This document shows positions 7,655-63,894 of a stretch of 64,000 nt of DNA, piece after piece (positions within the stretch are counted from its first letter, which is position 1; each line of letters starts with the position of its first letter). The notes under the pieces were generated by a model, which was not told where the DNA came from, ran no database searches, and was given only the letters and a program-made list of their open reading frames with translations. Source of the stretch: an uncultured bacterium (lineage in GTDB: Bacteria; Patescibacteriota; Minisyncoccia; Phycocordibacterales; UBA9973); assembly GCA_937903035.1 (NCBI GenBank), contig CALCZP010000008.1:21551-85550 (forward strand), written 5' to 3'. A program made the translations under genes and the position numbers.

Positions 7655-8150
7655 ATTGTCGAGTAAATGACATAAGTGATCCATCCTTGAGTACAAGATG
7701 AAGCTCATTTTGATCGATATTATATGAGTTAGTTTGGAGCAGTGCCGACTTGTAGCTTTTTTCAACGGAATCTGTTGGGCACGTTTTTGTATCACTTTGA
7801 GTAAATGCAACCAGTGAGAGATCAGATGAGTTGTCGGTAGTGAAACTGCCAATATATGTACCACAGTCAGTTGTCGCGACAACTTTTGTTGTGGTATCAA
7901 ATGCCAAGAGATAATCAGAAGGCTCATCAGGAGTCACCGTACTTCCATTGGGAAGCTTGGTATATTTCCATGCCCATGCAGAATCCTGTACGACTTTGTC
8001 ATCAGGTGCTGTAGTGATATCTGGTAGAACTGTCGTACCTGTTGTACGAACTTCAGGTGCTTTATAGTCACTTGGCCAAGTAAAGTAGACGAATGCACTA
8101 ATACCCAATAGTACGAGTGTTATGAGAATGATCCAGCTGTTTTTATGCAT
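7641..8150 (-). CDS. Secreted hypothetical protein (169 aa)
   Basis: N-terminal TM/signal; overlaps M23 start by 14 nt (operon). Confidence 0.5.
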   Translation of the reverse strand: MHKNSWIILITLVLLGISAFVYFTWPSDYKAPEVRTTGTTVLPDITTAPDDKVVQDSAWAWKYTKLPNGSTVTPDEPSDYLLAFDTTTKVVATTDCGTYIGSFTTDNSSDLSLVAFTQSDTKTCPTDSVEKSYKSALLQTNSYNIDQNELHLVLKDGSLMSFTRQYANK

Positions 8151-8174
8151 ATGAGTAGTATATAGTATTGCGAC

Positions 8175-8468
8175 TTATTGAGTGATTGTTTGACCTTCCT
8201 GGACGGTAGTAGTAGTTGTGCTTGTGTGAGTTGATGAGCCGCCAGTTTGGACAGTACTTGTACTGCTATGTGATGACGGGCTTACAGTGCGAACTGTTTC
8301 CGTATATATCGGCACTGATCGTGTAGATCTGACGAAGTATCCCCTTCGCCATGGAGCAGCATACAAGAGTGCGATCACTACAACGATAATAATAACTACG
8401 GTCAGGATTGCTTTATCTGTTGCGTCATTCATATAGTAAGGACGACTGAGTATACTAATGCTTACCAT
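8175..8468 (-). CDS. Small membrane protein with Ser/Thr-rich tail (97 aa)
   Basis: ORF with one TM and low-complexity S/T-rich C-terminus. Confidence 0.4.
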   Translation of the reverse strand: MVSISILSRPYYMNDATDKAILTVVIIIVVVIALLYAAPWRRGYFVRSTRSVPIYTETVRTVSPSSHSSTSTVQTGGSSTHTSTTTTTVQEGQTITQ

Positions 8469-8491
8469 TGACTCCTCACAGCTACTGTCTC

Positions 8492-9049
8492 TTAGTATTT
8501 ACGCATCACCCCGCGAACAATAGCTACAATCGTAAGTTCGTGCTCTGGATAAATTGGTTTAAAGTTCTTGTTTGCTGGCTCAAGCCATACCTTTCCATTT
8601 TTTGTACAAAAATATTTCATGGTGAATTCCCCATCAACATTTGCAATTACAATATCCCCTTGTCTTGCGCTACTAGTACGCTCTGCAATCACAATATCGC
8701 CGTTGGCAATATGCGCATCAATCATGGAGTCGCCATCAACTTCAAATAAATACGTTGATTCACGCTTACGCACGAGATAACTCTCAATATTGAGCGTATC
8801 ATCTACAGCCTCACCTGGTGCTGGGAGACCAGCTTTGACCGAACCAAGTAGTGGTATTTCATCAAACAGGCTGGTGGGGATGAGTTTACCAAGTTTGTCT
8901 TTGGTCACCACACCTGCCTCAACAAGCTTTTCAATCACCCGAGCAACAGCATTTTTTGACTTGAAACCAAAAAGCGAAAGCATCTCCGAGTATGTCGGCA
9001 TACGCTTGCGAGATTGATAGAATGAGATTAATTTTTCTTGGTAATCCAT
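8492..9049 (-). CDS. lexA: LexA repressor (SOS regulator, S24 peptidase)
   Basis: N-terminal wHTH, cleavage-site region VKAGLPAPGE, catalytic FEVDGDSMIDAHIANGDIVI and ...FTMKYF (Ser/Lys dyad). Confidence 0.85.
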   Translation of the reverse strand: MDYQEKLISFYQSRKRMPTYSEMLSLFGFKSKNAVARVIEKLVEAGVVTKDKLGKLIPTSLFDEIPLLGSVKAGLPAPGEAVDDTLNIESYLVRKRESTYLFEVDGDSMIDAHIANGDIVIAERTSSARQGDIVIANVDGEFTMKYFCTKNGKVWLEPANKNFKPIYPEHELTIVAIVRGVMRKY

Positions 9050-9052
9050 GAT

Positions 9053-9256
9053 TTAAAAAAAAGACGCAAATGCAGGAAATCGAAAAAAAGAAAGTGACTT
9101 TCGTGATTTTCCAAAGCGCTTGAGTATCATTGTATACCGTGCAAACTGGTTTGGGTATCGGTACATGGCCTGCTGTGCAATTTCATTACTTGCAACGATA
9201 CTTTTAATGCGATCAATTTCATGTTCGACAAGACGTTCAAATGGTGTGGTTTTCAT
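9053..9256 (-). CDS. Small ORF (67 aa) between SOS promoter and lexA; alternative single-ORF reading 9053-9370
   Basis: Start MKTTPFERLVEHEIDRIK... preceded by GGAG 9 nt upstream; 1-nt gap to upstream small ORF stop. Confidence 0.35.
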   Translation of the reverse strand: MKTTPFERLVEHEIDRIKSIVASNEIAQQAMYRYPNQFARYTMILKRFGKSRKSLSFFRFPAFASFF

Positions 9257-9257
9257 A

Positions 9258-9449
9258 TTAGAAAGCTCCAGCAAATAATCTCCCAAACAAGCCGGCTGAT
9301 TGTTTGCGTATTGCGATCTTTCGAAGTAATGCTTTGTGCTCGCGAGACTCTGCACTGTATGATTGACCATTTATGATCTTGAGATCAATGCGTTCATTGA
9401 GCCGTCGGATCTTGTTTTCGATTGTTTTGATGTATTGTGTTTGTGACAT
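9258..9449 (-). CDS. Small ORF (63 aa), first gene of the LexA-box-controlled transcript
   Basis: MSQTQYIKTIENKIRRLNERIDLKI...; begins 29 nt downstream of the -10 box. Confidence 0.35.
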   Translation of the reverse strand: MSQTQYIKTIENKIRRLNERIDLKIINGQSYSAESREHKALLRKIAIRKQSAGLFGRLFAGAF

Positions 9450-9485
9450 AGTCTGGGTTGTTATTACTGATAACTCGACCCTTCT

Positions 9486-9514
9486 AGTATAGGTGAACGA
9501 TTGTTCACCGTCAA
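9486..9514 (-). promoter_or_regulatory. Sigma-70 promoter (TTGACG-17-TATACT) with embedded Cheo-type LexA operator GAAC-N4-GTTC
   Basis: Minus strand reads TTGACG gGTGAACAATCGTTCACc TATACT; the GTGAAC/GTTCAC arms (9493-9508) are a perfect inverted repeat matching the Gram-positive SOS box CGAACnnnnGTTCG. Confidence 0.6.
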
Positions 9515-9548
9515 CAAGACTTATCCACAGATATGTTTCTTCCCCCTC

Positions 9549-10682
9549 TTATGACTCGTGTTCAAGCGCTATTTTGATTGCTTCAGTTGCAATAACATGT
9601 GCAGCATCTGCTTTATAAAAATGTTTTGCATGCCCGGTCATGGCATCATACCGATCCTTGTGTTTTAAAATCAGGTCGATTTCATTTTTGAGTACTGATG
9701 AGGTAAGATTTGCCTCCTCAATCACCGTGCATGCTCCAGTACGAGCGTAGTGATATGCATTTTTGCGTTGATGATCCCCATGAAAGATTTCACCCCTACC
9801 AGGTATAATGATAGATGGTTTACCCCATGCGGCAATTTCAAATATGGTTGAGCCAGCACGAGAAACAATTAAGTCACATGCACCACCAAACATCTTGGTC
9901 TCAAGATCAGAAAGGTATGGATAGACTTTGTATCGAGTACGACGAGTATCGTCACCAAGTGTAATGCGTGCATCGGTCTGTATTTCTTCGAACTGTTTTT
10001 TTCCAGTCTGGTGAATAATCTGATAATGCTCAAGGAGGTCGGGCAAAATATTCACGACAGTGTCATTAATAATTTTTGCACCAAGTGATCCCCCGATGAT
10101 CCCAATAACAGGCATCATCTCATCAAGCTCAAAGTATGACTTTGCACCTTCGTTTGCTGCAAGCGCAACACTTCGACGGACTGGCTGTCCTGTTACCGAA
10201 ACTTTTGCTTCATCAAAGTATGTAGCTGCCTCCGGGTATGAGAGTGCGACTTTGCGTGCAAACTTTCCTGACCAGAGGTTAACGCGACCTGGTACTGTAT
10301 CAGACTCATGGATAATGACTGGAATACGTAGAAGCTTTGCTGCAACAAGTGCGGGGAAACTCGCATACCCACCTTTTGAAATGATGACATCAGGATACAG
10401 TTGAAACACTTTGATCAGTGCGCCGATTGTACCAAAGCCTGTTTTGAAAATATCGATGAAATTCTGAAATGAAAAATAGGTGCGGAGTTTGCCAGCGGTG
10501 ATAGGAATAAAGGTCACAAATTGAGCGTCAAAAAGCTCTTTTTGCGAATTCTCGGTCGCCATATAGTAGAGTCTGAAATCTGTATAATGCTCATGATCAG
10601 CGATACGATTGAGCTCTTCTGCAATCGCAAGTAATGGATAGATATGACCGCCTGTTCCTCCTCCTGTCAGTAAGATTTTCAT
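9549..10682 (-). CDS. murG: UDP-GlcNAc:lipid I N-acetylglucosaminyltransferase MurG
   Basis: MKILLTGGGTGGHIYPLLAIAEEL... glycosyltransferase family 28 signature. Confidence 0.9.
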   Translation of the reverse strand: MKILLTGGGTGGHIYPLLAIAEELNRIADHEHYTDFRLYYMATENSQKELFDAQFVTFIPITAGKLRTYFSFQNFIDIFKTGFGTIGALIKVFQLYPDVIISKGGYASFPALVAAKLLRIPVIIHESDTVPGRVNLWSGKFARKVALSYPEAATYFDEAKVSVTGQPVRRSVALAANEGAKSYFELDEMMPVIGIIGGSLGAKIINDTVVNILPDLLEHYQIIHQTGKKQFEEIQTDARITLGDDTRRTRYKVYPYLSDLETKMFGGACDLIVSRAGSTIFEIAAWGKPSIIIPGRGEIFHGDHQRKNAYHYARTGACTVIEEANLTSSVLKNEIDLILKHKDRYDAMTGHAKHFYKADAAHVIATEAIKIALEHES

Positions 10683-59253: not shown

Positions 59254-60498
59254 TTATAGCATTGCTTTTGATCTTCGTACTTTGTGGAATGTCAGCGCAA
59301 AGCGATGTGACTCTGCGTTTGCAAGCAAGATAGCGTATTTGTTTTGTTCGATGAGTTCCTGCGGACCGGAGACGGACTTGGGACGGTGACGTTCATCTTT
59401 GGTGACCGCAATGATCGGAATGTTGAGTGCAAGATCCTTGAGTACTGACTCCGCAGCATTCACCTGAATAGCATTTCCGTCCACGATGATTGCGTTTGGA
59501 TACGACCATTCGGTATGCGCAAGGCGACGAGTGAGGACCTCTCGAAGTGCACCTGCATCGTTTGCCTTGTCGAAGCCTTTGATAGTGAACTTGCGATATT
59601 CATTTTTGTTCGCAACTGCATTTTCAACCACCGTCATCACGCCGACCATGTTGGTGCCAGAGAGATGGGCAATGTCATATGCCTCGAGACGAAACACTTG
59701 CTCATGTCTCGTTGATACGAGGTCACGCTTGATAAGTGACACATCCTGGATATGCTCGAGTGCAAAGACTTTCTGCTTGAGTTCATTCGCTGCTTCAAAT
59801 TTCTCTGCGTTCGCCGCCTTCATCATGTCGCGCTTGAGATCTGCGATGAGTTGACGGAGCTTGCCACCAAAGATGAGCTTGAGTCGGGTGATTGTTTTCT
59901 TGTACTGCTTGGCAGCTTCAGACGACGTCACATCTGGCGCAAGTCCGATCTGTCGATAAAACACGGTATTATCTTTCTTGGATGAGGCGAGATCACGAAA
60001 TGGAAAGATCTTGCGGAGGATCTTGAGTGCTTCACGAATACTACTACCACTTGGGTACGGACCATAGACTGCATCGTAGCTCACCTGCTTTGCCGAACGA
60101 GGAAGGTGCACGGTCTTTGCTTTTGTATCAATATCTTTTTGTCTGACGAGTACTATTTGTGGAAACTCTTCACGGGTAATAGCCACACAGTTGAAACTTT
60201 TGTCATCTTTTTCCTTGGTGTTGTAGTAGGGCGCATGTTTCTTGATCAGGTTTGCTTCCAAAATAAGTGCCTCAAGTGCATTCATCGTCTCCTGATACTC
60301 GACGGTTGCAGCCGTAAATACCATATCCACAATATGTGCTCCGCGTGTCTTGATCACATCAGGAGAAAAGTAGCTGCGCACTCGGTCACGGAGACTGGTC
60401 GCCTTGCCAATATAAAGAATCTTTCCTCCCTCATCACACCAAACATACACGCCAGGCGTGTCAGGAAAATCCAATTTGTCGAAGTCTTGACGAATCAT
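59254..60498 (-). CDS. uvrC: UvrC-like excinuclease (GIY-YIG N-terminal domain; short, 414 aa, no obvious C-terminal HhH)
   Basis: FPDTPGVYVWCDEGGKILYIGKATSLRDRVRSYF is a canonical GIY-YIG/UvrC N-terminus; UvrB-interaction-like helix; RNase-H-like endonuclease region. Confidence 0.65.
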   Translation of the reverse strand: MIRQDFDKLDFPDTPGVYVWCDEGGKILYIGKATSLRDRVRSYFSPDVIKTRGAHIVDMVFTAATVEYQETMNALEALILEANLIKKHAPYYNTKEKDDKSFNCVAITREEFPQIVLVRQKDIDTKAKTVHLPRSAKQVSYDAVYGPYPSGSSIREALKILRKIFPFRDLASSKKDNTVFYRQIGLAPDVTSSEAAKQYKKTITRLKLIFGGKLRQLIADLKRDMMKAANAEKFEAANELKQKVFALEHIQDVSLIKRDLVSTRHEQVFRLEAYDIAHLSGTNMVGVMTVVENAVANKNEYRKFTIKGFDKANDAGALREVLTRRLAHTEWSYPNAIIVDGNAIQVNAAESVLKDLALNIPIIAVTKDERHRPKSVSGPQELIEQNKYAILLANAESHRFALTFHKVRRSKAML

Positions 60499-62520: not shown

Positions 62521-63894
62521 CTAGAGGGCACCAAATCGACGCTTTGTTTCTTGCGCCTCGGTACGATGGTCACACATCGGCGCCGGATATCCATTGAGTC
62601 TGCGCGCCACACCTTCTGGATCATGGATTTCTTTTGGACTCAATGATGCGATCTCAGGTACCCATTTTTTGATGTACACACAATCCGCATCAAATTTCTC
62701 CTGTTGGAGCCATGGGTTGAAAATACGAAACCATGGTGATGCATCACAGCCTGTCCCTGCCACCCACTGCCAGTTGCCGTTGTTGACCGCAGGGTCGTAG
62801 TCCGTGAGCATCTGCGCAAAGTGTCGCTCACCCCACTGCCAGTTGATATGCAGATCCTTGATGAGAAATGACGCAACAATCATGCGGACACGGTTGTGCA
62901 TGTACCCCGTCTGTGCAAGCTCACGCATGCCGGCATCAACAATTGGAAACCCAGTCTCACCTTTTTTCCATTTCTCAAACTGCAGCTCATCAGTATTCCA
63001 CTCAAGTGCATCAAATGTACTTTTGTACGCGCCTGTATATACATGCGGCGCAAGTGCTGCAATCGTGGTGAAAAAGTCATGCCAGAGTAGCTCGCGCAAG
63101 AATGTCGTCGGTGTCGGCATATGAAGCGTTGCATACTGATAGATCTCGCGGATCGAAAGCGTCCCAAACTTGATATGGGCTGAGAGCAGTGACGTCGCAT
63201 CAATCGCAGGAAAATCTCGCTCTTGTGCATATGCGCTTTTGTGCGGGAGTTTCTTGAGGAGCTCTTTTGCATGAGTGCGACCACCGACTACTCGAAGTGT
63301 TTGTTTGATGGGAACAAGCTGACTCACAACCGCATCAATCGCAACACCTTGTGGATGTGTCATAAACGAAACGGTAGACGGGAGCTTTTTGGGCAAAGGT
63401 ATCGATAGTGCTTCAAGTGCGACACGGTAGTGAGTGTAGACACTATAGGGTTTGCCTTCTTTGGTCACGATTGTTCCTGGTGCATGGAGCGTCACATCGT
63501 GCTCAGCAATCACCGACACTTCATACTTTTTGCATATTTCATCGATTACACCGTCACGCATATGTGCAAATGGCGTGTAGTCTTTGTTGTACGAAAGTGC
63601 AGACGGCTGTACTTCCTTGATCAAGGTTTCAAGTACTTCTTCTGCAATACCAGTTCGCACATGAAGCACCACTCCCTTTTGTTGAAGCGCACGATCAAGA
63701 TCCACAAGTGACTCACCGAGCATCTGAAGCCCTGGCATACTTCGATACGGATGCTCACCTATCTGCCGCTCATCAAAGATAAATACCGGCAGTACTTCAT
63801 CAACGGTTTGAACAAGCGCATTAAGGGCAGTGTTATCCTCAAGGCGCAAATCCCGGCGAAATACATGGATACCGAGTGACTTTGAATGATTCAT
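62521..63894 (-). CDS. phrB: Deoxyribodipyrimidine photolyase (CPD photolyase/cryptochrome family)
   Basis: N-terminal FRRDLRLEDNTAL; FAD-binding domain GFPIVDAGMRELAQTGYMHNRVRMIVASFLIKDL...NGNWQWVAGTGCDASPWFRIFNP. Confidence 0.9.
   Translation of the reverse strand: MNHSKSLGIHVFRRDLRLEDNTALNALVQTVDEVLPVFIFDERQIGEHPYRSMPGLQMLGESLVDLDRALQQKGVVLHVRTGIAEEVLETLIKEVQPSALSYNKDYTPFAHMRDGVIDEICKKYEVSVIAEHDVTLHAPGTIVTKEGKPYSVYTHYRVALEALSIPLPKKLPSTVSFMTHPQGVAIDAVVSQLVPIKQTLRVVGGRTHAKELLKKLPHKSAYAQERDFPAIDATSLLSAHIKFGTLSIREIYQYATLHMPTPTTFLRELLWHDFFTTIAALAPHVYTGAYKSTFDALEWNTDELQFEKWKKGETGFPIVDAGMRELAQTGYMHNRVRMIVASFLIKDLHINWQWGERHFAQMLTDYDPAVNNGNWQWVAGTGCDASPWFRIFNPWLQQEKFDADCVYIKKWVPEIASLSPKEIHDPEGVARRLNGYPAPMCDHRTEAQETKRRFGAL

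Follow-up and report, generated by a model that had tools for sequence, protein, structure and literature searches.

A putative autoregulated SOS operon encoding small helical-hairpin proteins ahead of lexA in a Patescibacteria genome

Patescibacteria (CPR) account for much of bacterial diversity and possess minimal genomes, and to our knowledge almost nothing is known experimentally about their cell-cycle control or their DNA-damage response. In the 64-kb stretch of DNA that was analyzed here (the window), a lexA gene is preceded by two very small open reading frames, and the question raised by this locus is whether these frames encode real proteins under LexA control and, if so, what such proteins would contribute to the SOS response. 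An earlier note on this DNA had described a promoter of the form TTGACG-17-TATACT with an inverted repeat filling its spacer, followed by two ORFs of 63 and 67 aa that lie 1 nt apart and then by lexA, and all of these elements were located where they had been described. From its sequence, the locus reads as an autoregulated SOS operon of a Paceibacteria/Nomurabacteria-type Patescibacteria genome. We consider it likely, as one joint claim, that the operon has this architecture, is controlled by LexA, and encodes two real small proteins.

Promoter, operator and gene order

The features of the operon lie on the minus strand in the order promoter, ORF1, ORF2, and lexA. The promoter scan placed the -35 hexamer TTGACG at 9509-9514 and the -10 hexamer TATACT at 9486-9491 (both on the minus strand), which are separated by 17 nt, match the consensus at 10 of 12 positions, and form the top promoter-like site within 8000-10000. 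By number, the scan of the window was unremarkable (7 sites vs 5.5 expected). The spacer holds the perfect palindrome GTGAAC-AATC-GTTCAC (9493-9508, no strand assigned), which covers 16 of the 17 bases and is read as the LexA operator. Its core, GAAC-N4-GTTC, was encountered once in the window compared to 1.12 expected occurrences and is not above chance; the palindrome with its 12 specified bases is expected approximately 0.003 times per 64 kb by our own arithmetic.

The promoter was then compared among relatives. The exact palindrome was found between the -35 and -10 elements at about 44 of 48 loci from GTDB and at 72 of 75 from metagenomes (approximately 95%), and two further loci, L023 and L030, carry the operator with one mismatch. 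Either TTGACN or TTGCAT is kept at the -35 position, TATACT or TATAAT is invariant 1 nt past the operator, and the operator consensus taken from 110 non-redundant promoters is aGTGAACGntCGTTCACtTATACT. The plan of -35 element, operator, and -10 element, together with a 9-mer that is described below, recurs before the lexA operon in approximately 110 non-redundant promoters even though their flanks cannot otherwise be aligned, and the arrangement is therefore not a product of chance.

The gene at 8492-9049 (minus strand) encodes a protein of 185 aa with a winged-helix N-terminal domain and an S24 self-cleaving domain. It exceeds the cut-off of the LexA equivalog TIGR00498 (115.9 bits vs 110.95), matches Peptidase_S24 (1.4e-25), and shares 31% identity with E. 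coli LexA, to whose A84-G85 cleavage site and S119 and K156 dyad its residues A73-G74, S108, and K144 are aligned. With the downstream gene assigned to LexA by the equivalog cut-off and the operator position conserved at approximately 95% of loci, the predicted gating of this promoter by a LexA box was supported. These comparisons argue for control of the promoter by LexA, which would bind the GTGAAC-N4-GTTCAC operator.

Further LexA boxes, which the earlier note had anticipated, were encountered in a relative and not in this genome. At locus L050, a box also heads an SOS-type operon composed of a LexA paralogue and a Y-family polymerase. In the genome under study, no second box was found in the window and the 20 kb beyond its ends (approximately 84 kb), and within this searched region the uvrA, uvrC, and photolyase genes carried no box upstream. 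It was also noted that a Y-family polymerase directly follows lexA at six loci.

The intercistronic gaps are 1 nt between ORF1 and ORF2 and 3 nt between the ORF2 stop and lexA, and we infer that ORF1, ORF2, and lexA form a compact polycistron transcribed from a single sigma-70-type promoter. Closely spaced genes are usual in the operons of this genome, which is poor in SD-like motifs: such a motif precedes only 4 of the 42 genes of the window. The GGAG reported ahead of ORF2 is indeed present, 12 nt before the ATG, but because of this rarity it is weak evidence of a ribosome-binding site. The description of both ORFs as unannotatable had to be dropped, as public gene calls already carry them as hypothetical proteins.

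A possible fourth gene of the operon was noted at 8175-8468 (minus strand), encoding 97 aa (or 85 aa) with a single-pass membrane segment and a Ser/Thr-rich tail. It starts 23 nt past the lexA stop (59 nt when counted from the internal Met), and a search of the interval between the two genes revealed no site resembling a terminator. This gene is conserved in the closest relatives only, and its membership of the operon is uncertain. With its single transmembrane segment and its position after lexA, its product fits the classical pattern of SOS division inhibitors better in this genome than ORF1 and ORF2 do.

Two small proteins and a new family

We sought to characterize the small ORFs through their homologues, their dN/dS values, and AF2 models. 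ORF1 (9258-9449, minus strand, 63 aa) is predicted to be a small basic helical-hairpin protein and belongs to a family of at least 303 clusters at E<=1e-3. Its dN/dS of 0.05-0.09 compares with 0.11-0.16 for ORF2, 0.037 for lexA, and 0.025 for murG. The residues N18, I21, D22, I25, Y31, and H38 are invariant in the family. The AF2 model (pLDDT 86) places helices at 3-26 and 32-51, followed by a C-terminal tail that is aromatic and basic, and the conserved polar residues map onto this confidently predicted hairpin. The net charge is approximately +8. Among 72 family members, the longest apolar run per protein is 6 residues in the median and never more than 12, and a membrane-spanning segment is therefore absent. 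It was observed separately that the dN/dS of ORF1 is similar to that of lexA and that ORF1 is much better conserved than typical fast-diverging checkpoint inhibitors, which runs against the effector role that is considered below.

The amino-acid conservation of the small ORFs had been set beforehand, beside the occurrence of further LexA boxes, as a test of the earlier proposal. It was observed, with dN/dS values of 0.05-0.16 over the two ORFs, and a further box was seen in a relative, as described above. The same evidence bears on whether they function as proteins at all. They could instead be uORFs or leader peptides that bring ribosomes to lexA, or parts of a conserved non-coding leader. 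In a genome with so few SD-like motifs (4 of 42 genes), downstream cistrons may rely on termination-reinitiation, and gaps of just 1 and 3 nt would suit such an arrangement. This explanation is opposed by the dN/dS values, which rest on 19-27 synonymous differences per pair, by amino-acid motifs that hold across sequences only 35-60% identical whose DNA cannot be aligned, by the size of the family, and by the confidently predicted fold; the Rfam scan of 8000-9800 gave no match. On these coding signatures the leader explanation is essentially refuted, and we accord it next to no probability. ORF1 and ORF2 are accordingly read from their sequences as real proteins under purifying selection.

No relationship to a described family was detected. 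ORF1 had no match in Pfam, NCBIfam, PHROG, or PDB, and with regard to membership of SulA, neither ORF1, ORF2, nor the 72 family members gave a Pfam or NCBIfam match. When the ORF1 profile was compared to all PDB chains, only chance matches to haemagglutinin coiled coils were returned (E>=0.69), and a Foldseek search of the PDB with ORF1 yielded no match at E<=0.001. By these profile and structure searches, ORF1 founds a new and so far unannotated protein family. Several candidate assignments were set aside: scattered coiled-coil matches of the small ORFs, such as those to DegS and Lon_lid, are of a chance or compositional kind, as is a weak, partial match to AbiEii (PADLOC, E 0.0027, 37 residues). 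A MinD-like amphipathic membrane-targeting helix in the tail likewise found no support, the hydrophobic moment being no higher than in shuffled sequences (z = 0.4). Longer family members of up to 133 aa, considered as domain fusions, had merely been extended by the gene caller into the operator and promoter, which are thus translated with them.

ORF2 (9053-9256, minus strand, 67 aa) is clade-restricted and faster-evolving, with homologues that are 75-100% identical. It is confined to a two-ORF subclade in which LexA is at least approximately 65% identical to that of the window, and most genomes possess ORF1 alone. Nothing meaningful was found for ORF2 in Pfam, NCBIfam, PHROGs, or PADLOC. Its AF2 model is weak (pLDDT 69), with a helix-helix-tail topology akin to that of ORF1. 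The ORF1 and ORF2 profiles, built from 72 and 16 sequences, aligned over their full length in hhalign (E 5.7e-5, probability 66%); shallower alignments had earlier given a negative result, with a probability of 3%. ORF2 is probably a diverged tandem duplicate of ORF1.

The layout of the locus is kept in approximately 125 loci from Patescibacteria MAGs and metagenomes. LexA is encoded directly after the ORF1 homologue at nearly all GTDB loci and at 78 of 79 metagenome loci, the latter collected with the narrower A1 alignment and thus biased toward the L001-type clade. It was preferred because an alignment of the broad family had diverged too far to be of use in scanning the metagenomes. The spacing of ORF1 and lexA in relatives ranges from an 8-nt overlap to approximately 25 nt. 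The other neighbors vary, such as murG in the clade of the window and NUDIX or ComM-like genes in L001-L003. Two exceptions were recorded: locus L053 keeps the operator and the DnaA-like box and has no ORF1, and the LexA paralogue of L050 also occurs without ORF1.

A DnaA-box-like element at the promoter

The DnaA-box-like sequence that had been pointed out upstream of the promoter proved to be conserved more strikingly than any other element of the locus. The 9-mer TTATCCACA (9521-9529, plus strand), which reads TGTGGATAA on the operon strand, matches the DnaA-box consensus at 9 of 9 positions and is conserved in homologous promoters. The distance from its end to the -35 hexamer downstream is 6 nt here and approximately 9 nt in relatives. 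Of 110 non-redundant homologous promoters, 95 carry an exact copy and 11 more a copy with one mismatch. Its offset before the operator is nearly fixed at 22-26 nt (sometimes 34 nt), and its orientation is flipped in the clade of the window and in L053. Most likely, the conserved 9-mer would be bound by DnaA and so allow DnaA to tune the promoter of the lexA operon. It was noted as an observation against this step that one DnaA box, found in either orientation, is no proof of DnaA control.

We regard it as unlikely that TTATCCACA is a site of some other kind, whether for another factor, possibly ORF1 itself, or as an UP-like promoter element of this lineage. The box stands alone without a cluster and occurs in both orientations, and yet 95 of 110 promoters match the universal DnaA-box consensus at all nine positions. 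A general promoter element is contradicted by the copy number, since the copy at 9521-9529 is the only exact one within the 64-kb window. ORF1 is a candidate binder, being strongly basic, and in a phage promoter that neighbors an ORF1-like gene, TTATCCCCA is equally far from a consensus -35 element; however, L053 retains the 9-mer without ORF1, and a non-palindromic 9-mer fits monomeric binding of the kind shown by DnaA.

Proposed roles and comparison with known systems

On the basis of what is known of LexA in general, a dimer bound to the operator would block RNA polymerase, and DNA damage would lead to RecA-stimulated self-cleavage of LexA at Ala73-Gly74 and thereby to derepression of the operon. 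During damage, LexA would be destroyed as fast as it is made whereas ORF1 and ORF2 would be spared, so that their ratio to LexA would climb for as long as damage lasts; once intact LexA re-accumulates, the operon would be switched off again. If DnaA tunes the same promoter, replication status and DNA damage would converge on one operon. The absence of another box in approximately 84 kb suggests a small regulon, which makes the genes co-transcribed with lexA its plausible main outputs.

We tentatively propose that ORF1 and its duplicate ORF2 are damage-specific effectors, namely cytoplasmic, basic helical hairpins that would arrest or delay the cell cycle at division or replication. By analogy, they would act like SulA, YneA, or Sda while standing outside all of those families. 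The earlier note had named division inhibitors and toxins as candidate roles. Their co-transcription upstream of lexA implies that they would also be made in undamaged cells, which is awkward for a division inhibitor.

A second interpretation, which we consider rather unlikely, is that ORF1 (with or without ORF2) is a partner of the SOS switch, a small factor acting on LexA or RecA* that alters DNA binding or self-cleavage; since its gene lies inside the LexA-repressed operon, it would serve as a brake or timer on the response. The strict linkage and constant order of ORF1 and lexA (78 of 79 metagenome loci) while the other neighbors vary are in keeping with such a role, but the tight gene spacing is ordinary in this SD-poor genome. 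A conservation comparable to that of lexA and the conserved polar residues on the predicted hairpin point in the same direction; however, ORF1 gave no sequence or fold match to solved structures, and no ORF1-LexA fusion was present among the best 150 family members. The phage carries a tail-less ORF1 homologue, as a manipulator of the host SOS response would, but no LexA box was found at the phage locus. Small accessory proteins of the LexA family are known beside the repressor or co-regulated with it (PMC4551915, PMC7273328). On the other side, LexA is canonical here, and the L053 lexA and the L050 paralogue occur without ORF1, so LexA does not need it.

Small, paired, SOS-controlled proteins with aromatic, hydrophobic C-terminal tails could also act as toxins or damage membranes upon SOS induction, in the manner of TisB, DinQ, or other type I toxins, or could form a toxin-antitoxin pair. 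The defining trait of TisB and DinQ, a hydrophobic membrane-spanning peptide, was not found in the ORF1 family, whose apolar runs are too short to span a membrane. The charge of approximately +8 and the model of a soluble hairpin likewise argue against toxicity of this kind, as do the occurrence of ORF1 alone in most genomes, its expected constitutive co-expression with lexA, and a PADLOC result limited to the partial AbiEii match. We consider this explanation highly improbable.

Returning to the cell-cycle effector and to the LexA partner as the two roles for ORF1, we advance with some added reserve a broader claim that would accommodate either. ORF1 may represent a lexA-coupled SOS component of a new class, restricted to Patescibacteria of the Paceibacteria type, a soluble basic hairpin translated immediately before LexA from a promoter read by LexA and DnaA. 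It would serve as a cytoplasmic cell-cycle brake of a kind not known before or as the first chromosomal LexA co-factor, and the lexA operon of these minimal genomes would be the main or only SOS output, joining replication status to DNA damage. As a checkpoint effector, ORF1 would be the first for the superphylum and a new structural type without a membrane anchor; as a partner of LexA or RecA, it would be unprecedented among LexA accessory factors in being chromosomal and clade-wide. Dual control of lexA by LexA and DnaA, if true, would be a new wiring of replication status into the SOS response. The locus offers a clean, testable unit with a defined operator, an exact DnaA-box match, and an unannotated family of 60-70 aa translated with LexA, and all of these readings can be checked in vitro from synthetic genes with no culture required.

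A Patescibacteria SOS network with LexA-autoregulated promoters was reportedly described by Sanchez-Osuna, Barbe and Erill in 2017 (Environ Microbiol). Similar to Gram-positive (Cheo-type) LexA promoters, the present locus combines a canonical LexA, a promoter of its own, and a GAAC-N4-GTTC palindrome overlapping the RNA polymerase site, and Y-family polymerases would belong to the regulon, here in relatives. It differs in that the operator arms are GTGAAC/GTTCAC rather than CGAAC/GTTCG, that lexA is the last cistron behind one or two small-protein genes rather than the first, and that the promoter has a conserved DnaA box at its side. A precedent for a checkpoint gene co-transcribed with lexA from an autoregulated promoter is the lexA-sulA operon of Pseudomonas. 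In that operon, however, sulA lies downstream of lexA and encodes a 160-aa FtsZ-binding protein, whereas ORF1 and ORF2 are encoded upstream and are unrelated to SulA.

With regard to switch partners, gp7 of phage GIL01 strengthens LexA binding and blocks cleavage (PMC4551915), and DdrR of Acinetobacter acts with UmuDAb (PMC7273328). Like these, ORF1 is small, its gene is coupled to that of a LexA-type repressor, and a single operator would control both. By this coupling the two are plausible stoichiometric partners. Unlike these, ORF1 is chromosomal and conserved across the whole class, it bears no detectable sequence or structural relationship to gp7 or DdrR, and its interaction with LexA is putative. 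DinI and RecX, which act on RecA, provide a further precedent for a partner of the switch.

Sda of Bacillus subtilis, said to have been characterized by Burkholder et al. in 2001 and Goranov et al. in 2005, is reportedly a checkpoint protein of approximately 50 aa with a helical-hairpin fold and a DnaA-box-controlled promoter. It shares with ORF1 and ORF2 the small helical hairpin and the DnaA-box promoter, and it reports replication trouble. It differs in having no sequence similarity to either protein (neither of which has a Pfam Sda match), no known LexA control or lexA linkage, and a target, the sporulation kinases, that is irrelevant in Patescibacteria.

Finally, YneA, SosA, ChiZ (Rv2719c), and DivS are small, lineage-specific, LexA-controlled SOS division inhibitors of Gram-positive bacteria that are co-localized with lexA, and a single transmembrane domain is common to all of them as their defining feature (PMC6851548). 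ORF1 and ORF2 resemble this group in being small, adjacent to lexA, and under a LexA box. The inhibitor genes, however, are divergent from lexA, whereas ORF1 and ORF2 lie upstream in the same direction and would be co-transcribed with it. The inhibitors possess their single transmembrane domain and in some cases LysM, whereas ORF1 and ORF2 are predicted soluble basic hairpins without either feature and are far better conserved.

The lexA operon promoter and its operator

Downstream of the murG end (9549, minus strand), we found a minus-strand promoter whose -35 element TTGACG (9514-9509) and -10 element TATACT (9491-9486) are separated by a 17-nt spacer. The perfect palindrome GTGAAC-AATC-GTTCAC (9493-9508) occupies 16 of these 17 nt, and a leader of approximately 30 nt separates the -10 from the first gene. 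ORF1 (9449-9258, 63 aa), ORF2 (9256-9053, 67 aa) and lexA (9049-8492, 185 aa) then follow on the minus strand with gaps of 1 nt and 3 nt. The 9-mer TGTGGATAA (TTATCCACA on the plus strand) lies at 9521-9529, between the murG end and the -35. A single promoter, the operator filling its spacer and one DnaA-type box stand ahead of a closely spaced polycistron whose last gene is lexA, which confirms the arrangement of promoter, palindrome, two small ORFs and lexA first described in the earlier note.

The 185-aa gene scored 115.9 bits against the NCBIfam LexA equivalog (cut-off 110.95) and contains a Peptidase_S24 domain. Alignment with E. coli LexA placed Ala73-Gly74 on the cleavage site and Ser108 and Lys144 on the catalytic dyad; judged by these features, the gene is lexA and is predicted to encode a canonical self-cleaving LexA. 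It was also noted that gene callers differ on the lexA start in two related loci (L058 and L140), so that the gene begins either right after ORF2 (185 aa) or at Met17 (169 aa). Helix 1 of the DNA-binding domain is kept in the 185-aa form, where the TIGR00498 match begins at residue 11; this longer form is also conserved in the related locus L004.

The core GAAC-N4-GTTC was found once in the window against 1.12 expected, with no excess over chance, and the 16-mer operator with mismatches occurred there at chance-level frequency, so the window alone proves little and the argument rests on relatives. A LexA-anchored scan with one genome per species yielded 49 Patescibacteria MAGs whose LexA shares 51-89% identity with that of the window; these were labeled Paceibacterota, Nomurabacteria, Zambryskiibacteria or Taylorbacteria, with an automated 'Saccharibacteria' label on many. 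The exact GTGAAC-N4-GTTCAC was located between a -35 (TTGACN/TTGCAT) and TATACT/TATAAT at approximately 44 of the 48 usable GTDB loci, where the promoter-embedded operator lies 230-500 nt upstream of lexA, and two of the exceptional loci had a one-mismatch operator. An ORF1-anchored metagenome scan added 79 loci, and the exact box was present in 72 of the 75 with enough upstream sequence. The consensus of 110 promoters sharing less than 85% pairwise identity was aGTGAACGntCGTTCACtTATACT. Upstream genes and flanks are wholly different from clade to clade, with murG found upstream in the window clade and NUDIX/ComM-like genes in loci L001-L003; the operator and the 9-mer are therefore phylogenetic footprints rather than inherited background.

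The assignment of the palindrome as a LexA operator is supported by its universal placement at lexA's own promoter, by a second copy directly preceding a LexA paralogue and a Y-family polymerase in one relative (L050), and by Y-family polymerases that directly follow lexA in six loci. In L050, this second LexA-box promoter stands directly ahead of the 191-aa paralogue and the 435-aa polymerase (786-2700), a unit immediately upstream of the ORF1-lexA operon, and its DnaA-like box is decayed. Separately, a GGTC(G) element was observed 12-15 nt past the end of the operator, close to where transcription is expected to begin (L016-L045 promoters; 9470-9480 in the window), in 32 of 110 promoters versus 4 of 110 shuffled controls. 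In another relative (L033), the box promoter and ORF1 are separated by an inserted 91-aa GIY-YIG-like ORF, approximately 540-265 nt upstream of lexA, which lengthens the leader to approximately 600 nt.

The DnaA-box-like element already noticed upstream of the promoter proved to be conserved at a near-fixed offset: TTATCCACA was exact in 95 of 110 promoters and one base off in 11. Its start precedes the operator by 22-26 nt, or in some cases by 34 nt, which puts it approximately 9 nt upstream of the -35, and in the window clade and L053, the locus with the most distant LexA, it occupies the same place in inverted orientation. It is not a general promoter element: the window holds a single exact copy, and one-mismatch copies fall mostly within genes. 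Because the 9-mer exactly and conservedly matches the universal DnaA box, we infer that DnaA probably modulates the lexA operon promoter from a site centered near -49. DnaA boxes upstream of the -35 occur at the DnaA-regulated promoters of E. coli nrdAB and B. subtilis sda, and the placement of the 9-mer would resemble these.

The small-protein genes ahead of lexA

Both small ORFs behave as real genes, with conservation in relatives at the amino-acid level. Comparing the window with L004 and L058, dN/dS was 0.05-0.09 for ORF1 and 0.11-0.16 for ORF2, next to 0.037 for lexA and 0.025 for murG, with 19-27 synonymous differences per ORF1 or ORF2 comparison. They had been called unannotatable; both are already listed as hypothetical proteins in public data. 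Neither gave a meaningful match in Pfam, NCBIfam, PHROGs, PADLOC or PDB sequences. A profile built from five ORF1 homologues recovered 303 cluster representatives at E<=1e-3, of which 46 reached E<=1e-10; almost all have a length of 60-75 aa. Database members of the family are all entered as 'hypothetical protein' without a Pfam domain. The few longer members were rejected as gene-caller extensions in which the operator itself is translated as '...GERxFTYT...'.

An 85-sequence alignment showed M1, N18, I21, D22, I25, Y31 and H38 to be invariant in ORF1, and AlphaFold2 with this alignment predicted an antiparallel helical hairpin (helices 3-26 and 32-51, pLDDT ~98 there, mean 86) with a low-confidence C-terminal tail. 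Fold searches with ORF1 returned generic hairpins only, and a relationship to solved structures was not detectable for ORF1 or ORF2. The ORF1 family is strongly basic (median pI 10.5, net charge +8), and aromatic residues make up 23% of the last 15 positions versus 6% elsewhere. No membrane-spanning stretch was found in the family, and the amphipathic moment of the ORF1 tail was not above that of shuffled sequences.

ORF2 is limited to the subclade with LexA at least ~65% identical to the window's (the window, L004-L021 and L058). It is fast-evolving and has lost the N/D/H motif, retaining the N-terminal helix (F..L...E..RL) and the basic F-rich tail. A first ORF1-ORF2 profile-profile comparison with shallow alignments was negative; a later one gave a moderate match along the entire length (E 5.7e-5, probability 66%), and a weak AF2 model of ORF2 has the helix-helix-tail order of ORF1. 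ORF2 is thus probably a diverged tandem duplicate of ORF1.

The interpretation in the earlier note is partly supported overall. The GGAG before ORF2 is a weak candidate for a ribosome-binding site, as Shine-Dalgarno motifs are nearly absent from this genome (an SD-like motif in only 4 of 42 genes). In many of the 42 genes checked in the window, a TATACT/TATAAT -10 box stands only 7-12 nt ahead of the start codon ATG, a sign that leaderless or very short-leader mRNAs may be widespread in this genome.

Wherever the box lies 230-500 nt upstream of lexA in a GTDB locus, an ORF1-family gene lies between. Among the metagenome loci, 78 of 79 have the ORF1 homologue directly followed by lexA (the remaining contig is truncated), with spacing from an 8-nt overlap (ATGCATAA) to approximately 25 nt. 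L053 (51% identical LexA) has the same promoter directly ahead of lexA without ORF1; LexA therefore does not require ORF1, which is an addition specific to a clade.

Proposed working and possible role

Following established LexA biology, LexA would occlude RNA polymerase, and RecA-stimulated self-cleavage of LexA would derepress the operon. While damage persists, the level of ORF1 and ORF2 relative to LexA would rise because LexA is cleaved and they are not. No second box was found in approximately 84 kb of the genome, including uvrA, uvrC, photolyase and endonuclease III. The clustered DNA-repair genes, namely the uvrC-like gene (59254-60498) and photolyase (62521-63894) in the window, and endonuclease III, uvrA, dUTPase and uvrB beyond its end (L143, same genome), lack a LexA box in front. 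The single box at the lexA operon is consistent with a regulon of very few genes whose outputs are those carried along with lexA. A long inverted repeat was also observed in the divergent intergenic region ahead of uvrA (L143, 2578-2765).

Gram-positive SOS checkpoint inhibitors are, as a rule, lineage-specific small proteins co-localized with lexA (PMC6851548). Based on this co-localization and the apparently tiny regulon, our best single guess, offered tentatively, is that ORF1/ORF2 act as a cell-cycle-arresting effector. The main rival, which we consider only somewhat less probable, is an accessory factor of the LexA/RecA switch, as with GIL01 gp7 (PMC4551915) or Acinetobacter DdrR (PMC7273328); the strict ORF1-lexA gene order, a degree of ORF1 conservation matching lexA, and the expected production of ORF1 protein in uninduced cells as well favor it. 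A homologue carried by a putative phage fits either reading: on the viral contig IMGVR_UViG_3300033145_000623 (L139, 3014-3161), a 49-aa ORF1 homologue keeps every invariant residue and lacks the C-terminal tail, and its locus has neither lexA nor a LexA box. Directly after it (L139, 3160-3212), we observed a promoter that matches the consensus perfectly, and TTATCCCCA precedes its -35 by 8 nt.

Comparison with known systems

Membership of ORF1/ORF2 in the YneA/SosA/ChiZ/DivS group was ruled out, as the defining transmembrane domain was tested for and is absent; SulA, type I toxins, Sda and DinI were likewise ruled out by the lack of family matches. In this genome, the pattern of Gram-positive SOS division inhibitors, a single-TM protein next to lexA, is better fitted by a 97-aa ORF (8175-8468, minus strand; 85 aa if translated from an internal Met), which is separated from the lexA stop by 23-59 nt. 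A single transmembrane helix and a Ser/Thr-rich tail characterize it, GAGGAG stands in front, and its conservation does not extend beyond the closest relatives (L004-L008, L058, L140-L142). The operon promoter and operator are of a known kind, LexA autoregulation, and the operator core is of the Gram-positive type. A 2017 paper on the Patescibacteria SOS response may already describe part of these findings, certainly the operator motif. The conserved small-protein family ahead of lexA and the near-universal DnaA-type box at the lexA promoter appear to be new, as does the family's probable duplication from ORF1 to ORF2.
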